NCBI GenBank assembly: GCA_035513335.1
Contig: DATKCE010000053.1
Span: forward strand, 25,793-89,792
Reading direction: 5' to 3'
DNA length: 64,000 bases
Source of the DNA: Acidimicrobiia bacterium
GTDB lineage: Bacteria; Actinomycetota; Acidimicrobiia; Spongiisociales; ZC4RG35
Numbering within the stretch: the stretch's first letter is position 1; each line of letters starts with the position of its first letter. The notes under the pieces were generated by a model. It searched no databases and was not told the origin of the DNA. It worked only from the letters and a program-made list of their open reading frames with translations. Both the position numbers and the translations under genes were made by a program. Positions 7,161 to 62,706 of this stretch are shown here, in pieces.

Positions 7161-7916
7161 TCAGATGTGGGGGCGGCACTGCTTGCATGCCCGGAAACCC
7201 GCCTCCTCGGCGGCGGTCCCGGACGGGAAGTCGACCACGTTCGAATCCCTGGAGCGGCGAATGGCTGCGCAGGTGGGATGGCAGTACACCCCTGTGGACG
7301 AGTTCCCCCGCACCCGGACGCGACGTGCCGCCAGCCCCTCCAGCTCGCTGGGGCGGGCTCCCTCGTGCTCCAGCAGCTCGATCTTGTTGTGCGGCCCGCC
7401 CAAGGAGTAGTTGCCGATGTGCCCGTCGGTGCGCACCACACGGTGACAGGGGATGATGAGGGGGATCGGGTTCCTGGCCACTGCGGACCCGACGGCGCGC
7501 ACCGCCCGGGGGCTGGCGATCTCCCGAGCCACCCACCCATAGGGGCGCACCTCGCCTTTGGGGATGGTGGCGGTGGTGCGCAGCACCCTCTCCTGGAACG
7601 AGGTGACCGTACGCAGGTCGACTGGCAGTTCGCCAGGGCTGCCCCGCTCGATCGCCTCCGGGATGTGCCGGGCCCAGGCCGAAGGCGCCTCCGCCCTGAT
7701 CAGGGGTCGACCGAGATGCGGCTGATGACGCTCCGCGAACCCATCGGCGATGTCGAGGGACGAGACCCCCCCGGGGTTGAAGGTGACCACCACCTCGCCG
7801 ATTGGCGAGTCGTAGAAGTCGTATCCCTCGGCGAGACCGGTTCCGAGGGCGACGCCCTCGCTGATCCCGGGAGGGAGATGGCCGGTCAGCTGTTCGAGCT
7901 GCTTTTCGATGCTCAT
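7161..7916 (-). CDS. Methylated-DNA--protein-cysteine methyltransferase (Ogt-like) with a C-terminal Ada-type Cys4 zinc module
   Basis: Active-site IIPCHRVV. C-terminal CHPTC-x27-CKQC matches Ada N-domain ligand spacing (CxxxC..CxxC). ATGA overlap with the ECF sigma gene. Confidence 0.85.
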   Translation of the reverse strand: MSIEKQLEQLTGHLPPGISEGVALGTGLAEGYDFYDSPIGEVVVTFNPGGVSSLDIADGFAERHQPHLGRPLIRAEAPSAWARHIPEAIERGSPGELPVDLRTVTSFQERVLRTTATIPKGEVRPYGWVAREIASPRAVRAVGSAVARNPIPLIIPCHRVVRTDGHIGNYSLGGPHNKIELLEHEGARPSELEGLAARRVRVRGNSSTGVYCHPTCAAIRRSRDSNVVDFPSGTAAEEAGFRACKQCRPHI

Positions 7917-17363: not shown

Positions 17364-18241
17364 GCCAGCCTCCGATAGCGGTACCGCACTGCCACGACGC
17401 TGAGAACGGCCGAGACGGCGATCACGGCCGCCGAGGTCCAGCCGCCGAACCCGACCGCCTCCGCGGGGTAGGTCACCGTGTCTCGAAACAGGTCGTCCCG
17501 GATGATCCGGGGGAGATGGTCGAACGCCAGCAGAGAGGTCCAGCGCGCCCCGGCGAAGGAGGCCTCCGACAGCTGGCCGGCGATGAACCGACCCGGCACC
17601 AGCACTCCCAGGTAGGCCACGGATGCCACTCCGGGACGGTTGATCCAGGCGGCAAGCACGAAGGCGAGCGCCCCATGCATCGCCACGAACGCCACAGTGG
17701 TCGTCGGGACCTTCCAGAGGACCTCCAGGTTGTCTGTCATGTAGGTGAGGAATCCGTCGCTCGAGATCAATCCGAGACCGATGTGAAGGACGAGTTGGGG
17801 GACCAGGTAGATCGCCCCGACCACGGTGGCGAAGGCGGCCACCTTCGAGACGAGGTACCCATCGACCGTCAGCGGACGCGAGAAGTAGACCGAGAGCACT
17901 CCTCGCACCCGGTCGGGGACCAGCAGCCACGGCGCGGCGAAGGCGATGAAGAGAAGGCCGATCCAGCTGTAGAGATCGAACAACTCACCGTACGAAGGGA
18001 CTCCGGTGGCGAATGACTCGGCGAGGTCGCCGATGAGCCAATGGACACCGATGACGATGGCGGCCATCCCCACTGCGATGGCGATCATCACCCACGGGTA
18101 GACCTTCTCCCGGGCCTTCCGCCCCAGGCCGAGGACCCTGCGTATCCCGTCCTTGTAAACCGCCTTCCTCGCCCCCGAGGCCCCGGTCCGATCTCCGTCG
18201 TAGGTCCGATAGCCCCGGTCGTATATCACCTGGTCGCTCAA
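17360..18241 (-). CDS. ABC transporter permease (ABC-2 family)
   Basis: 293-aa ORF with 6 TM-like segments, coupled to the flanking ATPase genes. Confidence 0.75.
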   Translation of the reverse strand: MSDQVIYDRGYRTYDGDRTGASGARKAVYKDGIRRVLGLGRKAREKVYPWVMIAIAVGMAAIVIGVHWLIGDLAESFATGVPSYGELFDLYSWIGLLFIAFAAPWLLVPDRVRGVLSVYFSRPLTVDGYLVSKVAAFATVVGAIYLVPQLVLHIGLGLISSDGFLTYMTDNLEVLWKVPTTTVAFVAMHGALAFVLAAWINRPGVASVAYLGVLVPGRFIAGQLSEASFAGARWTSLLAFDHLPRIIRDDLFRDTVTYPAEAVGFGGWTSAAVIAVSAVLSVVAVRYRYRRLA

Positions 18242-19155
18242 GCGCCGGGTCCGTTACTCGGCTTGAGAAACAAGTCTTCGAGCGAGGCGACACCGCGGAC
18301 CATACGGATCAACCCCGTGTCGCCGGCGGCGCTCTCCTGGATGATCGCCTGCTCGATGCTGTGGTCTCCCGGCCCGACCACGAGCCGCAGTCCATCCAAA
18401 GTCACCGCGAGGCCGCGATTGGTGAGACGCTCGGCGAGGCGCGCCGGATCGGTCACCACCTCGACTTGAACCGTTCCTAGTTTCTCCGGGCCCAGCAGTG
18501 GTCCCGAGCGGAGAAGCCTTCCGCCGTCGAGCATGACCACCCAGGAACAGGTCTCCTCGATGTCGGTGAGCACGTGGGAGCTGACGATGACGTTGATGTC
18601 GAACTCCCCGAGACGGCGGATCAGCTGGAGCATCTGGGCCCGGCCGGCCGGGTCCAGCCCCGACGCCGGCTCGTCGAGGAGAAGGAGATCGGGATCGTGG
18701 ACGATGGCCTGAGCCAGCTTGACCCGCTGTTGCATCCCGGTCGAGAAGTCGCCCAGAAAGCGGAAGCGCTCCTCCTCGAGACCGACCAGGAAGAGGGTCT
18801 CGGACGAGCGCCTTCTCGCTTCCCTGGGCGGGATCCCGGCGAGCTGCGCGGCATAGGAGACGAAGTCGGCCGCCGTCTGGTCCCTGGGGAGGCACTCTCC
18901 CTCCGGCATGTAGCCGAGTCTCGCCCTGACCTCGAGCGGAGACGTCTGTGGATCGTGGCCCATCACCCACATCCGGCCTCGGGTGGGGTGGAGTAGACCG
19001 AGGAGCAGACGGAGCATGGTGGTCTTGCCGGCGCCGTTCGCTCCCACCAGCCCGGTCACACCGGGGGGTATCTGCAAGGTGAGATCGCGCAAGGCGACCA
19101 CTTCTCCGTAGTCGTGGGTCAACCCGTCGATCTCGACGATGTCCTCGCGGTTCAT
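18238..19155 (-). CDS. ABC transporter ATP-binding protein
   Basis: Walker A GANGAGKTT, signature FSTGMQQR, Walker B LLLDEPASGLD. Start trimmed to ATG 19155 (MNREDIVEI..). Confidence 0.9.
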   Translation of the reverse strand: MNREDIVEIDGLTHDYGEVVALRDLTLQIPPGVTGLVGANGAGKTTMLRLLLGLLHPTRGRMWVMGHDPQTSPLEVRARLGYMPEGECLPRDQTAADFVSYAAQLAGIPPREARRRSSETLFLVGLEEERFRFLGDFSTGMQQRVKLAQAIVHDPDLLLLDEPASGLDPAGRAQMLQLIRRLGEFDINVIVSSHVLTDIEETCSWVVMLDGGRLLRSGPLLGPEKLGTVQVEVVTDPARLAERLTNRGLAVTLDGLRLVVGPGDHSIEQAIIQESAAGDTGLIRMVRGVASLEDLFLKPSNGPGA

Positions 19156-19229
19156 CGACGGGAGTGTGGCATGGGCCAGGAGGCACCGAAATCGGGGATC
19201 ACCCCCCACCTGTCCCCGGGGGGGCTAAC

Positions 19230-19282
19230 CCGTTCTGTGAGGGTCTACCGCGCGTAACGCGCCACGAACCCGCACAGAACGG
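19230..19282. repeat. REP-like nested hairpin, copy 1 (CCGTTCTGTG-N33-CACAGAACGG)
   Basis: Perfect 10-bp arms. The spacer contains GGGT/ACCC and GCGCG-TAA-CGCGC helices. It lies 3 nt after the ligase stop codon. The same arms recur at 62010-62064. Confidence 0.7.
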
Positions 19283-19285
19283 TTG

Positions 19286-20305
19286 TCAGGTGACCACCTC
19301 GCGGAAGCCGAGGCCTTCAGGTCGCTCGAGTTGGTCCATGGTGCACTGGAGGGCTTCTTTGTCGGGGCGCCAGCGGTGGAACCGGGCGGCGTGGCGGAAC
19401 CGGTCGCCCTCCAACTGGTCGTAACTGACCTCCACCACCACACCCGGCTGCACCGGTGTCCATGAGCTGTCTTTCCCCGCCGACCATCGGCTCTCGGCCC
19501 CGGGCGCACGCGCCGCCTCGTCGAAGCTCTCGTCGGCCTGCAGCTCGAGGAACCTCTCGTAGATCTCCACCCGATCGACGTTGGGGAATCCCGAGCAGTG
19601 GCCGATGAAGTGGAAGTCCCCGCGGTGGTTGTACAGACCGAGGAGCAGAGATCCGATCTTGCCGCCGTCCTTGTGCTCGCGGAACCCTCCGACGACGACG
19701 TCGACTGTGCGGCGGTGTTTGATCTTGATCATGGCCCGTTTCCCGTGCTGATAGGGGAGTTCCGGCCTCTTGGCGATGATCCCGTCACATCCTGCGGGCT
19801 CGAACTCGTGGAACCACGCACGGGCCTTCTCCTCGCTACCGGTTTCGGGAGTGAGATGCCACGGGGGCTCGAGCGTCGTCGCCAGCGCGACGAGACGTTG
19901 GCGACGCTCGGAGAACGGCGCTTCCCGCAGGTCCTCGCCCCGGTCGGCGAGCAGGTCGAACGCCACCAGCTCGGCCGGGGTCTGGCCGGACAGCAGGTCG
20001 ATCCGTGACTCGGCGGGATGGATCCGCTGTTGCAGGGCGTCGAAGTCGGTGACACCGTCGATGACGACGACGATCTCGCCGTCGACCACGGTCCCCGAGG
20101 GGAGCTGGTCGAGAGCAGGGCGCAGCTCGGGGAAATAGCGGAGGAGAGGTCGCTGGTTGCGAGAGTCGAGGCGGGGATCCGGCGCCGACCAGGAGACCGA
20201 TCGGAAACCGTCCCATTTGGGCTCGTACACGAAGTCGCCGCGCGGCCAGTTCTCTGAGACCTTCGCCTCCATGGTCGCTACGGGCGGTTGAAACGGATGG
20301 CTCAT
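19286..20305 (-). CDS. ATP-dependent DNA ligase (LigC / LigD-ligase-domain type)
   Basis: Adenylation motif YEPKWDGFR (KxDG), later GCDGIIAK and an OB-fold region. Start trimmed to ATG 20305 (MSHPFQPP..). Confidence 0.88.
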   Translation of the reverse strand: MSHPFQPPVATMEAKVSENWPRGDFVYEPKWDGFRSVSWSAPDPRLDSRNQRPLLRYFPELRPALDQLPSGTVVDGEIVVVIDGVTDFDALQQRIHPAESRIDLLSGQTPAELVAFDLLADRGEDLREAPFSERRQRLVALATTLEPPWHLTPETGSEEKARAWFHEFEPAGCDGIIAKRPELPYQHGKRAMIKIKHRRTVDVVVGGFREHKDGGKIGSLLLGLYNHRGDFHFIGHCSGFPNVDRVEIYERFLELQADESFDEAARAPGAESRWSAGKDSSWTPVQPGVVVEVSYDQLEGDRFRHAARFHRWRPDKEALQCTMDQLERPEGLGFREVVT

Positions 20306-20342
20306 CGGCGCGGAGTGTATGTGCCGATAGCCTGAGAGCCGG

Positions 20343-21335
20343 ATGTGGAACAAGACCAAAGCGAACCTGCGTCTCACCTACGACGTCTTCGTGGCGGCGG
20401 GCAAGGAGTTCGCTGCCGTCCGGGGGAGTCGGATGGCCGCTGCCGTCGCCTACCGGACCATGTTCGCCCTGGCGCCTTTGTTCCTCCTTGCAGTGAGCAT
20501 CGCCGGGACGGTCTTGGGAAGTCGCGACGCCGCCCGGTTCGAGATCCTGTTTCGGGTCGAGGAGCTGGCGGGCCCACAGGTGAGGAGCGCCCTCAGCACC
20601 TTCCTCCAATCGGTCGAGGTCTCCAGAGACAGTGCCGTGATCCTCGGTGCTGCGCTTCTCTTCTGGACCGCCTCCAGCCTCTTCATGGAGATCCAGACCG
20701 ACCTCAACGACATCTTCGACGTGCCCCAGGAGAGGGTGAGGGGAGTAATGGGGTTCATCCGCAAGCGGACACTTGGTGTTCTCTGGGTGCTCGGGATCGG
20801 TGTCGCCCTGATCGCGGTGTGGCTGGTGAACGCGGTCTGGCGCTATTTCGGCGACTCGATCCTGCCCGCCGGTGCCGAGCATCTCCACTCTCTGGTGGGA
20901 TGGCTCACTCCGCTGGTGTCGGTCATTCTCCTCCCCCTCCTCCTAGGGCTCTTCTTCCAGACGATGGTCGCGGTCAAGGTGCGCTGGAGGGCCATCTGGT
21001 GGGGGTCCTTCTTCACATCGGTGGCGTTCCTCGCCGCCGCCTATGTAGTGAGCCTCTACTTCGCATGGGACAGCGAGACCTCGGCGTCACAAGTGGCTGC
21101 GTCACTGTTCGTGATCCTGCTCCTCGCCTTCGTCCTCGCCGCAGTGTTCCTCTTCGGGGCCGAAGTGACCAAGGTCTACGACGACTACCTCGACAACGGG
21201 GACGTTAAGACGCCGAGCGAGCGAAACGCCTACCGCCCCGAGATCGTGGTCTCCGAGCCGGAGCGATCGGTGACCCTCGCCGCGGTGTTCGCCTTCTTCG
21301 CCGGATGGCTCGTAGGCTGGCGCCGACGTCCCTGA
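20343..21335 (+). CDS. YihY/BrkB family membrane protein
   Basis: AAAVAYRTMFALAPLFLL N-terminal signature and a 6-TM profile. Confidence 0.82.
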   Translation: MWNKTKANLRLTYDVFVAAGKEFAAVRGSRMAAAVAYRTMFALAPLFLLAVSIAGTVLGSRDAARFEILFRVEELAGPQVRSALSTFLQSVEVSRDSAVILGAALLFWTASSLFMEIQTDLNDIFDVPQERVRGVMGFIRKRTLGVLWVLGIGVALIAVWLVNAVWRYFGDSILPAGAEHLHSLVGWLTPLVSVILLPLLLGLFFQTMVAVKVRWRAIWWGSFFTSVAFLAAAYVVSLYFAWDSETSASQVAASLFVILLLAFVLAAVFLFGAEVTKVYDDYLDNGDVKTPSERNAYRPEIVVSEPERSVTLAAVFAFFAGWLVGWRRRP

Positions 21336-24296: not shown

Positions 24297-25063
24297 GTCG
24301 CACCCTTGCCTTCGGGGACGACGGTTCCGACGGTGCCGCCCGCTGCTGGGATTGGATCGCCAGTCACGTCTGGGACGGTTGGGAGCTCGAGGTGGTGACG
24401 ACCGAGCCGCCGGCAGACATGCACCCCGTCTCCCCCGATGAAGCTGAGCTCCATTCGTGGGAGCCGGACCAACCCCGCGACACCGCTGGTCTCGGTTTCG
24501 CCTCTATCGAGTATCTTCGAGCCCAGATCGACCCCCGGGTAGCGCTCATCGCCCGGGCTTGGGACCTGGTGGCTATCGGGCCGCGCGGGTCTGGCGTCCT
24601 CAAGACGCTCCATCTCGGGAGCACAGCCGATTGGTTGCTGCGTCAGCCCACCTCTCCGCTGCTGATCGCCCACCGGGGAGAGCCGGTGAGACGGGTCCTG
24701 GCCTGTGCCGACGGGTCTGGCCACGCCCGGCGGGCCATCGAGACGTTGGCCTCGCTACCACTGGTGGCCGGACTGCCGGTGACGGTGATGGCTGTCGACG
24801 ACGGGCGGGTCGACGCCCGGTCAGCCGTCGAAGGGGCCGGGGAGCTCCTCGTCGGCTCCGGAGCGGAGATCGACAAGGTGATACTCCAGGGAAGGCCGAC
24901 CAGGGTGATCCTGGACCAGATCGCGGAGGCAGAGCCCGGTCTGGTGGTCATGGGAGCGCGCGGCCACGCGGGCTTGAAGCGGTTGGTCCTCGGTTCCACC
25001 ACCTCTGCGGTAGCGCGGTCTAGCGACGTGTCACTGCTGGTGGCACACGCCCGGATGGAGTGA
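24293..25063 (+). CDS. Universal stress protein (tandem Usp domains)
   Basis: Second domain ends in VVMGARGHAGLKRLVLGSTTSAVARSSDVSLLVAH. ATGA overlap with terC. Confidence 0.82.
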   Translation: MSRTLAFGDDGSDGAARCWDWIASHVWDGWELEVVTTEPPADMHPVSPDEAELHSWEPDQPRDTAGLGFASIEYLRAQIDPRVALIARAWDLVAIGPRGSGVLKTLHLGSTADWLLRQPTSPLLIAHRGEPVRRVLACADGSGHARRAIETLASLPLVAGLPVTVMAVDDGRVDARSAVEGAGELLVGSGAEIDKVILQGRPTRVILDQIAEAEPGLVVMGARGHAGLKRLVLGSTTSAVARSSDVSLLVAHARME

Positions 25064-38778: not shown

Positions 38779-38801
38779 GCCGGAGATGTTATTTCTCTCC
38801 G

Positions 38802-38849
38802 TTTTCGCGCATCAAATGGCGCGTTCTCAGCGCAGCTGATGTGCGAAAA
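38802..38849 (-). terminator. 13-bp imperfect inverted repeat after the ABC operon and upstream of dus
   Basis: TTTTCGCGCATCA / TGATGTGCGAAAA (1 mismatch) with A/T-rich flanks, in an unusually AT-rich 80-nt spacer. Confidence 0.4.
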
Positions 38850-38859
38850 GGTGAGGCGG

Positions 38860-61339: not shown

Positions 61340-61924
61340 TCAGCCGAGCTCGACCTCGATCTCGACCTCGACCCGGCCGTTCTTCAGCCGGGCGTCGAAC
61401 TCGGCCTCCGCCTTGAGACCGGAGGTGAATTCGAGCTCGATGCGGTCGGGCTCGATCTTGTTTCGCTCCACCTTCCATCCGGGAGCCGAGACGGAGACCA
61501 GGACGAGCTGGCCGGAGCTCACCTCGAGGGTGACGGTCCCGACTCCAGGGATCAGGTGGGTGCTCACACCGTCCGGGACCTGTCTGGCGTCACTGTCGTC
61601 GACGCTCGTCGAGGTCGAGGAGCCGATCGAGGTCGAGGTGGTCGAGTTGCCTGCAGCGCTCGTCGAAGTGGTTCCGGCGATGCTGGTCGAGGTCGACGCG
61701 TTGGTACTCGTTGAACTCGAGGCCTTCACGCTCGTCGACGTGGACGAGTCGGGAGTCGTCACCGCGGTCGACGGTGTGGAGACGCCGGCCGCGACAGTGG
61801 CCGACGTGCCGGATGTGGCGGTGATCGACGTCGAGGTGCTGTCATCGCCACCCGCCCAGGCCACACCGACCACCACCAGAGCTGCGACGATCGACGTGAA
61901 CACTCCGAGCATCTTCTTGATCAT
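61340..61924 (-). CDS. Membrane-anchored Ser/Thr-rich protein with a conserved C-terminal beta domain (paralogue of 58776..59282)
   Basis: N-terminal TM LGVFTSIVAALVVVGVAWA, a ~95-aa STS-repeat tract, and C-terminal ..SAPGWKVERNKIEPDRIELEFTS..RLKNGRVEVEIEV. Confidence 0.7.
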   Translation of the reverse strand: MIKKMLGVFTSIVAALVVVGVAWAGGDDSTSTSITATSGTSATVAAGVSTPSTAVTTPDSSTSTSVKASSSTSTNASTSTSIAGTTSTSAAGNSTTSTSIGSSTSTSVDDSDARQVPDGVSTHLIPGVGTVTLEVSSGQLVLVSVSAPGWKVERNKIEPDRIELEFTSGLKAEAEFDARLKNGRVEVEIEVELG

Positions 61925-62009
61925 GGGTTACCTCCTTGGTGAACCATGACCACCACTGTGTCTCGCCCCGCGTCATCAGGTCCTCAGACGATGCTCAAGG
62001 AGTCCTCAA

Positions 62010-62064
62010 ACCGTTCTGTGAATGCTACGTGAGAGATATTCTCAGCCCCCGTTCACAGAACGGT
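62010..62064. repeat. REP-like nested hairpin, copy 2 (ACCGTTCTGTGAA-N29-TTCACAGAACGGT)
   Basis: Perfect 13-bp arms. The spacer contains a TGAGA-GATAT-TCTCA helix. It lies 6 nt after the stop at 62071. It shares its arms and CTAC/CCCG internal-loop bases with 19230-19282. Confidence 0.7.
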
Positions 62065-62070
62065 CTCGGG

Positions 62071-62706
62071 TCAGCGGGCGGGGTGATCCCAAGCGTCCTC
62101 CGGCCGACCGGTGTCGATGCTCCAGCGGGGGAGGAAGAACTGGACGATGGGGCCGATGAGGAGGGCAAAAGCGATGGTCCCGACACCGAAAGTCCCACCC
62201 ATCAGGAATCCCGTGATCAGCACCACGATCTCGAGACCCCATCGGGTGACCCGGATCGACGGGCCGCGCCCGGCGATTGCGGTCATCAGGCCATCGCGTG
62301 GCCCTGGCCCGAGATTCGCTCCGATGTACATGCCGGATGCCAAGCCGATGAGGATGATCCCTGCTGTCAGCATGACCGAGGCGAGCCATGTGTTGGGTGG
62401 GCGCGGGATGACCAGGACGCCGAGGTCGATGACCACTCCGATGATGACGGCATTGAGAATGGTGCCGATCCCGTAGCGCTCCCGCAGCGGCAGCCACAGC
62501 AGGAGGACGACGAATGAGATGATGATCGACCAGATTCCCACGGTGAGGCCGAACTGTTCGGTGAGCCCCTGATGGAGGACGTCCCAGGGGGGCAGTCCCA
62601 ACCCGGACTGCAACACCAGAGCGATGCCCAGCCCGAACAGCACCAGCCCGACGTTGAGTTGGATCATGCGGCGGCGCAGGTTCTTGCCGCTGACGGAGAT
62701 GAACAT
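62071..62706 (-). CDS. YczE/YitT-like membrane protein
   Basis: 211-aa 5-6 TM protein (LNVGLVLFGLGIALVLQSGLGLPPWDVLHQGL..). Confidence 0.65.
   Translation of the reverse strand: MFISVSGKNLRRRMIQLNVGLVLFGLGIALVLQSGLGLPPWDVLHQGLTEQFGLTVGIWSIIISFVVLLLWLPLRERYGIGTILNAVIIGVVIDLGVLVIPRPPNTWLASVMLTAGIILIGLASGMYIGANLGPGPRDGLMTAIAGRGPSIRVTRWGLEIVVLITGFLMGGTFGVGTIAFALLIGPIVQFFLPRWSIDTGRPEDAWDHPAR

Follow-up and report, generated by a model that had tools for sequence, protein, structure and literature searches.

The window analysed here is a stretch of 64,000 nucleotides from contig DATKCE010000053.1 of the Acidimicrobiia bacterium assembly GCA_035513335.1 (hereafter G000; 2.03 Mb in 57 contigs, 68% complete, 64.8% G+C), and it carries two 53-nt palindromes that share their arms and lie 43 kb apart. 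Copy 1 (19230-19282) and copy 2 (62011-62063), neither assigned to a strand, both read CCGTTCTGTG-N33-CACAGAACGG, with AGGGTCTACCGCGCGTAACGCGCCACGAACCCG and AATGCTACGTGAGAGATATTCTCAGCCCCCGTT as their respective interiors. Copy 1 stands between an ATP-dependent DNA ligase gene (19286-20377, minus strand; PF01068 at E 1e-28 and PF04679 at E 3e-13), whose stop codon (19286-19288, TCA, a minus-strand TGA) is 3 nt from the element, and an ABC-transporter ATPase gene downstream of it (18238-19209, minus strand; PF00005 at E 1e-26). The start codon of the ATPase gene is uncertain, 19209 being the most upstream candidate; the longest reading frame opens about 20 nt downstream of copy 1. Copy 2 is 7 nt from the stop of a 211-aa open reading frame (ORF) without a Pfam match (62071-62706, minus strand), and the 194-aa ORF downstream of it (61340-61924, minus strand) starts 86 nt from the element. 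The initial annotation had described both hairpins, each just after a stop codon, and the description holds: the exact pattern occurs at both sites, compared with no match in 100 dinucleotide shuffles. Its coordinates for copy 2, 62010-62064, mark a real site but add one A...T pair to the true span. We read these hairpins as solo members of a dispersed family of 53-bp palindromes, a system resembling the repetitive extragenic palindromic (REP) sequences and REP doublets forming hairpins (REPINs) with a different partner enzyme, and we put this reading at roughly 70%.

Folding of the window copies agrees with the helices first described, including the different apical helices that both pair. 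Copy 1 forms a 10-bp foot, a GGGT/ACCC helix and an apical GCGCG-TAA-CGCGC hairpin; copy 2 forms a 14-bp foot and an apical TGAGA/TCTCA helix. Single-strand folding of both copies, on both strands, gave z scores of -5.5 to -6.7, which none of 200 shuffles equalled. A search for the arms across G000, as the initial annotation had suggested, found 20 copies whose arms match exactly and 25 once one mismatch per arm is allowed, 24 of the 25 being 53 nt long; two more, one cut by a contig end and one more degenerate, bring the total to about 27, and the reversed-pattern control matched nothing. We then sampled 60 relatives: exact-arm copies are present in 20 of the 21 genomes of the same genus, at 1-25 per genome, in 2 of the 15 from other genera of the family and in 1 of the 24 from other families of the order. 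Scanning one genome per prokaryote species returned at least 118 stretches with the pattern; among the stretches listed, nearly all lie in metagenome-assembled genomes (MAGs) labelled Acidimicrobiia, Acidimicrobiales, Microthrixaceae, Ilumatobacter or Iamiaceae. Viral contigs gave no match to the exact pattern. The 53-nt length is kept in 112 of 153 copies. Five contigs (L095, L109, L116, L123 and L131) of a MAG labelled Mycobacteriales bacterium SMAG_U3176 also hold exact-arm copies of 53-55 nt; the MAG is mislabelled or misbinned, or else the family has reached taxa outside Acidimicrobiia.

The anatomy of the element was resolved by aligning 86 distinct copies drawn from many genomes. Above an invariant 10-bp foot (CCGTTCTGTG/CACAGAACGG) stands a second stem, roughly 5 bp long and covarying; pairing then loosens in the middle before an apical helix of 4-6 bp closes on a loop of 3 nt. 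Almost no variation is seen in the ten outer pairs, partly by construction, the copies having been found through their arms. All 15 inner pairs vary, with compensatory changes. Paired cells make up 86% of the alignment against 67% in column shuffles, double-sided changes number 446 cells against 182, and the covariation score is 0.444 against 0.127; for each of these measures, none of 500 shuffles reached the observed value, and sliding the 3′ partner by 1-3 columns gave covariation scores of 0.07-0.15. Pairs 11-15 form in 83-92% of copies, and each occurs in three or four Watson-Crick types; for pairs 16-20, an internal loop in many subfamilies, the figure is 60-69%; pairs 21-25 constitute the apical helix. 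The internal-loop bases CTAC and CCCG that the two window copies share proved not to be family-wide, CTAC/GTAG being confined to the internal loop of some subfamilies. A run of at least four G lies 1-10 nt outside one end on 25% of sides, compared with 5% of random 14-mers and about 7% in the complementary control. Collectively, the dispersed extragenic palindromes, about 27 in this genome and with strong compensatory variation, confirm that the window copies belong to a REP-like family rather than to chance.

Two segments of about 1 kb in G000 are bracketed by pairs of elements. Contigs of this genome are labelled C plus a number, the window contig being C53, and relatives G plus a number; the bracketing pairs lie at C29:6179-6231 and 7179-7231 and at C39:23356-23408 and 24372-24424. 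Each segment holds one gene, and the C29 and C39 products are 54% identical. The product, of about 300 aa, is predicted to fuse an AbiEi-type winged-helix DNA-binding module to a Vsr/EDxHD-type PD-(D/E)XK nuclease. It matches the profiles AbiEi_4 (PF13338), DUF559 (PF04480) and REase_MTES_1575 (PF18741), PADLOC AbiEi profiles cover residues 1-177 (E 1e-26), and D233, E244, D246, H251 and D260 are among the residues invariant in 12 orthologues. Foldseek comparison of the C-terminal domain of an AlphaFold model returned I-Bth0305I (3r3p; template modelling score 0.76 on target, probability 1.00) and Vsr (1cw0/1vsr) as its top matches; for the N-terminal part the fold search listed AbiEi 6y8q, at a weak E of about 0.1. 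A sequence-only profile search of the PDB gave spurious kinases as its top matches, with the DUF559 structure 3hrl only at E 0.06. No AbiEii toxin gene is adjacent to the cassette, which is a single gene between two hairpins.

The cassettes follow a fixed layout of element, about 47 nt, a gene of about 897 nt and element. In all of them the leader has a conserved GGGGGTTGA box, promoter-like and some 35 nt ahead of the start codon, and the G run noted outside the elements recurs as a GGGGG box after the upstream copy; the downstream copy takes in the final codons and stop of the gene. Conservation is better in the arms at the outer ends of the unit than in those facing the gene. Homologues of at least 40% identity are bracketed in the same geometry in G020, G011, G009, G005, G013, G010, G017, G016, G003, G012, G035, G015, G004, G030, G019 and G002, and in G001 the bracketing is visible on one side only, the contig ending there. 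At 30-42% identity, paralogues still lie between two palindromes, but the arms of these have diverged (for example, TCGTTCTGGGCGC..., CTTCTGTGTCGATT... and GTTTCCTGTCAATC...). The distant DUF559 paralogues of G000, on C10, C21 and C49, are not bracketed by the element, and we found no long elements with these ends besides the nuclease cassette. The clade-1 cassette, which includes C29, keeps its neighbour genes, left and right, in 12 or more species of the genus and is therefore vertically inherited, like the genes for REP-associated tyrosine transposases (RAYTs). The protein tree places the C39 paralogue with the protein of G012 (63% identity, support 99/97), and the elements of G012 have the same AT-rich apex type as those of the C39 paralogue.

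Scattered copies resemble the copies that bracket the nuclease gene in their own genome. When 59 scattered copies from seven genomes were compared with gene-bracketing copies, interior identity was 72% within the own genome and 50% across genomes. The best match was the own genome for 45 of the 59, where about 8 would be expected by chance; none of 2000 label permutations reached the observed mean, a figure that is not a strict probability, as the genomes are related. Within G000, subfamily A is like the C29 cassette (79-85% identical) and subfamily B like the C39 cassette (64-85%), and a smaller subfamily C has the form GACAC...GTGTC. Copy 1 of the window belongs to A: its interior is 82% identical to the copies of its cognate cassette (C29:6179-7231) and 36% to those of C39. 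Copy 2 belongs to B, with 85% identity to the copies of its cognate cassette (C39:23356-24424) and 36% to those of C29, and its last 25-mer, ATATTCTCAGCCCCCGTTCACAGAA, occurs elsewhere in G000 only in the upstream copy of the C39 cassette. The initial annotation had seen a covarying inner helix between the two copies. Both helices do pair, but the difference is not drift of a single element; it exists because the copies represent two subfamilies, each cognate to a different nuclease paralogue.

Comparison with the closest relative, G014, which is roughly 95% identical and has element-site flanks 91-99% identical, and with outgroups traces how the cassettes and their copies changed. At the C29 locus G014 is without the whole A unit, from outer end to outer end, and reads TCTGACCA-CGG-TTCAGGG, a derived clean loss because the locus is syntenic in the genus. 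The site of the B cassette, on C39, is an ordinary spacer of 70-95 nt in G014, G011 and G010; the B cassette is therefore a recent gain in the G000 lineage, where it replaced the old spacer, and one neighbour gene now stops at the TGA inside the element. Of nine B-type solo copies that could be scored against G014, one is common to both genomes as B. At four (C43:15439, C43:26471, C57:8394 and window copy 2) G014 has a C-type element at nucleotide-identical junctions, and at another four (C12:8770, C23:38317, C31:70282 and C36:93436) it has no family member; the C12, C23 and C31 sites are empty in G011 too. A- and C-type solos behave otherwise, 8 of 10 being common to G014 in the same type (Fisher p = 0.005 versus B-type). 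A census of G014 counted 24 core-arm copies, mostly C-type, with one B and with a D-type absent from G000. The arrival of the B cassette thus went together with fresh insertions of its cognate subfamily and with replacement of older copies in place. For the five sites replaced in place, polarisation by outgroups is only partly informative, each genome having its own type there, and a search of G000 for a donor of the extra bases TTCGGGGACCC beside the new C12 insertion gave no informative match.

Interiors change at sites that persist. Window site 1 carries an element in G014, G010 and G002, the interior differing in each, and at the same junctions G000 has an A-type and G014 a C-type element; the site is decayed in G011, G012 and G003, and there is no element in G005, G009, G001, G004 and G019. 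At window site 2, an element follows the stop of the 211-aa ORF orthologue in 7 of 20 genus genomes, each with its own interior, and at identical junctions the interior is C-type in G014 and A-like in G011. The sites are long-lived; the interiors are not. In a third copy on the window contig, G000:C53:101812-101864, 12 kb past the window end, the interior is the exact reverse complement of the G014 copy, and the arm variant CCATTC has stayed on the same side while the hairpin core flipped. The site orthologous to G000:C29:28844-28896 in G014:C10 (L220) keeps only CCGTTCACAGAACGG, its middle 38 nt having been deleted. The flip, the interior swaps at fixed junctions and the loss of spacer bases fit break repair at hairpin DNA better than cut-and-paste transposition, none of them being diagnostic.

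The position of the copies bears on a different explanation, that they are host RNA signals. Neighbours were scored for 110 unique copies that no ORF spans and for which a gene was called on each side, using a crude gene finder that was the same for the background: 62 are convergent (56%), 40 co-directional and 8 divergent, compared with 23%, 55% and 22%, respectively, over all gaps of G000. All copies lie in intergenic gaps or overlap gene ends by a few nucleotides, with the stop of the incoming gene usually 0-20 nt from the element and, in eight cases, supplied as TGA at element positions 9-11; the elements account for many odd stop codons, tiny convergent spacers and contig breaks at repeats in Acidimicrobiia MAGs. 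This enrichment at gene 3′ ends and between convergent genes would suit mRNA 3′-end hairpins that terminate or protect transcripts, the foot being read by a host RNA-binding protein or RNase and the link to the nuclease gene being incidental. The hairpins are also very stable, the foot is identical on both strands and so usable by both converging transcripts, and T is mildly enriched beyond the stem (about 33% over the 6 nt next to it, versus 17.6% in the genome). However, only 10 of 121 downstream tails have at least four T in 6 nt, which separates the hairpins from canonical intrinsic terminators. Copies occur in both orientations relative to transcription, eight lie between divergent genes, and on the sense strand in co-directional contexts 30 G.U-type mispairs stand against 27 of A.C type (p = 0.79), giving no RNA-strand signature. 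Rfam had no match at the gathering score across the window and around copy 1 only sub-threshold chance matches (E 0.07-0.6). With neither G.U excess, strand preference, Rfam match nor U-tract, there is no sign of a strand-specific RNA behind the structured-RNA option of the initial annotation. Moreover, a vertically kept signal would not swap interiors at fixed junctions between genomes about 95% identical, nor match the copies bracketing one gene, and B-type copies expanded as the B cassette was gained. We therefore consider host RNA signals an unlikely account of the family.

The DNA-binding module suggests another role. AbiEi proteins bind inverted repeats, and AbiEi antitoxins control their own genes through such repeats in the promoter. 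An AbiEi-like domain might thus autoregulate its own gene through operator sites, the scattered copies being a regulon or decoys and the nuclease domain serving an unrelated role, for example in defence. Homology to AbiEi over residues 1-177 is consistent with this, as is the copy directly upstream of the GGGGGTTGA box in every cassette. The proposal leaves unexplained the second copy, which overlaps the 3′ end of the gene, the need for a self-complementary interior, and the lineage-specific insertions and in-place replacements; most copies are at 3′ ends rather than promoters, and the adjacent AbiEii toxin gene is missing. As the sole explanation we find it quite unlikely, although an operator role is compatible with the REP-like reading as an additional function. 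The resemblance to AbiEi antitoxins of type IV AbiE toxin-antitoxin systems (6y8q) is limited to the 170-180 N-terminal residues that match AbiEi profiles: an AbiEii nucleotidyltransferase partner is lacking here, the C terminus is a nuclease and the unit is a single gene between hairpins.

Movement by a classical transposase is a further alternative. The initial annotation had suggested looking for an associated RAYT/TnpA-REP-type enzyme, and none was found: the Y1 transposase profile PF01797 gave no match in G000 or across 22 genus genomes (14 with a completeness of 90% or more), whereas control genomes gave matches. Ordinary miniature inverted-repeat transposable elements (MITEs) or true REPs moved by a DDE or Y1 RAYT enzyme encoded elsewhere, with the nuclease gene as passenger or preferred target, are highly improbable. 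In their favour, terminal inverted repeats of 10 bp are a formal MITE trait, master-copy amplification typically yields genome-specific subfamilies, and G000 is incomplete, so that a transposase could be outside the assembly. However, no target-site duplication exists at the flanks of any copy or in filled/empty comparisons; the one gene found between such ends lacks a transposase domain and sits in the only long element that has these ends; the REP hallmark GTAG is absent from the foot, which is CCGTTCTGTG; and a gene family bracketed at fixed geometry in about 17 genomes is unlike a passenger. MITEs such as the Neisseria Correia elements, and integron attC sites, share with the family conserved ends, a variable self-complementary middle and placement right after stop codons, some copies supplying the stop; they differ in that the elements here have no target duplication, no DDE transposase or integrase partner and no arrays. 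An attC-like reading was rejected because the copies are not in arrays and the core sites, as read from the sequence, do not fit RYYYAAC/GTTRRRY.

Of the systems compared, REP/REPIN-RAYT ('REPtrons') of Proteobacteria (Nunvar et al. 2010; Bertels & Rainey 2011, PMC3116915; PMC3337134) likewise place tens of short extragenic palindromes at gene 3′ ends and have one dedicated gene flanked by two of them; their scattered copies match the bracketing ones, several gene/repeat pairs can coexist in one genome, and the main gene is vertically inherited at a syntenic locus. Unlike them, the family described here has as its partner a winged helix-turn-helix (wHTH)-Vsr/EDxHD nuclease instead of the Y1 HUH transposase of RAYT, lacks the GTAG foot, consists of single long hairpins of 53 bp, constant over the 10-bp foot and variable inside, rather than REP doublets, and is hosted by Acidimicrobiia. 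The free-standing EDxHD/Vsr-like homing endonucleases (I-Bth0305I, 3r3p) and Vsr (1cw0) share the C-terminal fold and the acidic/His motif. As with homing endonucleases of this type, presence of the nuclease gene is polymorphic with clean boundaries, and the in-place overwriting of targets resembles homing-type gene conversion. In contrast to them, the nuclease gene is chromosomal and syntenic across the genus rather than in a phage, intron or intein, its product is fused to an AbiEi-type module, and the presumed targets are dozens of short palindromes instead of one host-gene allele.

The REP-like reading can be cast as a cycle of breakage and repair. The wHTH module would recognise the invariant foot together with the paralogue-specific interior, as duplex or as extruded hairpin or cruciform, and the nuclease would nick or cut at the element. 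The break would be mended by copying another family member, so that interiors are overwritten (concerted evolution), and repair may occasionally seed copies in other hairpin-prone gaps at gene 3′ ends, where selection would tolerate them. Any effect on transcript 3′ ends would be a by-product or a secondary host use.

Several observations weigh against this reading. The action of the nuclease on the repeats is what we infer, and the protein model is mediocre (mean predicted local distance difference test score 69, with residues 71-130 below 50). To our knowledge, Vsr-type nucleases have no strand-transfer activity, which leaves the origin of new copies unexplained, and the arms give only 10-15 bp of homology for repair-templated copying. 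New copies replace 8-15 nt of old spacer with no clean insertion, which fits break repair and is not diagnostic of it, and the cassette loss in G014 could be replication slippage across the stem of the flanking palindromes, with no enzyme involved. The correspondence between repeats and nuclease is also imperfect: subfamily C is without a cassette in the 68%-complete G000 assembly, G014 (10 exact copies) and G006 (4) are without a close nuclease homologue in fragmented assemblies, and G017 has the nuclease gene but no exact-arm copy. Finally, the genomes compared are related and so are non-independent samples.

Tentatively, and with slightly less than even confidence, we go further and propose a second, independently evolved repeat-enzyme partnership, in which an AbiEi-Vsr/EDxHD nuclease cuts the 53-bp palindromes and break-induced copying overwrites and multiplies them, a form of 'homing' onto scattered chromosomal hairpins, with each paralogue maintaining its own repeat lineage and activity in the recent past of the lineage. 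REP/REPIN-RAYT is, as far as we know, the only well-supported case of short repeats long kept by a dedicated, vertically inherited enzyme, and full-text literature on DUF559, on REP with Vsr and on REPIN/RAYT with Actinobacteria yielded no account of such a partnership. If the proposal is true, the repeat-enzyme lifestyle would have evolved more than once, the parallel case arising in another phylum and with an enzyme of unrelated fold, and a role would be assigned to the large uncharacterised AbiEi-DUF559 protein family of Actinomycetota. The comparison of sister genomes offers a directly testable case, in which a cassette was gained and cognate repeats then spread and replaced older copies. 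Should it be specific for a sequence or a hairpin, the nuclease may also be useful as a reagent.

Other palindromes occur in the same genomes. A second family, CCGTTTTCGCGCATC...GATGCGCGAAAACGG, of about 52 nt, has one copy in the window at about 38799-38851 (G000:C53:64591-64643) and at least 25 copies in G000; its outermost CCGTT...AACGG is common to both families, no gene in the G000 assembly is bracketed by it, and one of its members occupies the site of C31:70282 in G014. The ancestral spacer at the B-cassette site (G014:C68:10677-10765, G010 L280, G011 L279) holds a further palindrome, GCGAACCCAGGGTTCG...CGAACCCTGGGTTGCGC, and similar strings (...CCCCGAACCCTGGGTTC) recur in G000 at C24 ~6146 and C31 ~92186. 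This palindrome may be a third repeat family, and its presence at the B-cassette site hints that new copies land on pre-existing hairpins.

Both window copies have a further conserved motif nearby. Just upstream of or at the ABC-transporter ATPase start, window 19190-19209 holds AAATCGGGGATCACCCCC, a small GGGG-ATCA-CCCC hairpin that is kept in most genus genomes with or without the 53-nt element; the sub-threshold Rfam match to 'ffh sRNA' (E 0.07) overlaps it. Between copy 2 and the 194-aa gene, at window 61973-62009, lies the motif TCATCAGGTCCTCAGACGATGCTCAAGGAGTCCTCAA, which is kept in many genus genomes and may be a promoter or operator of that gene.

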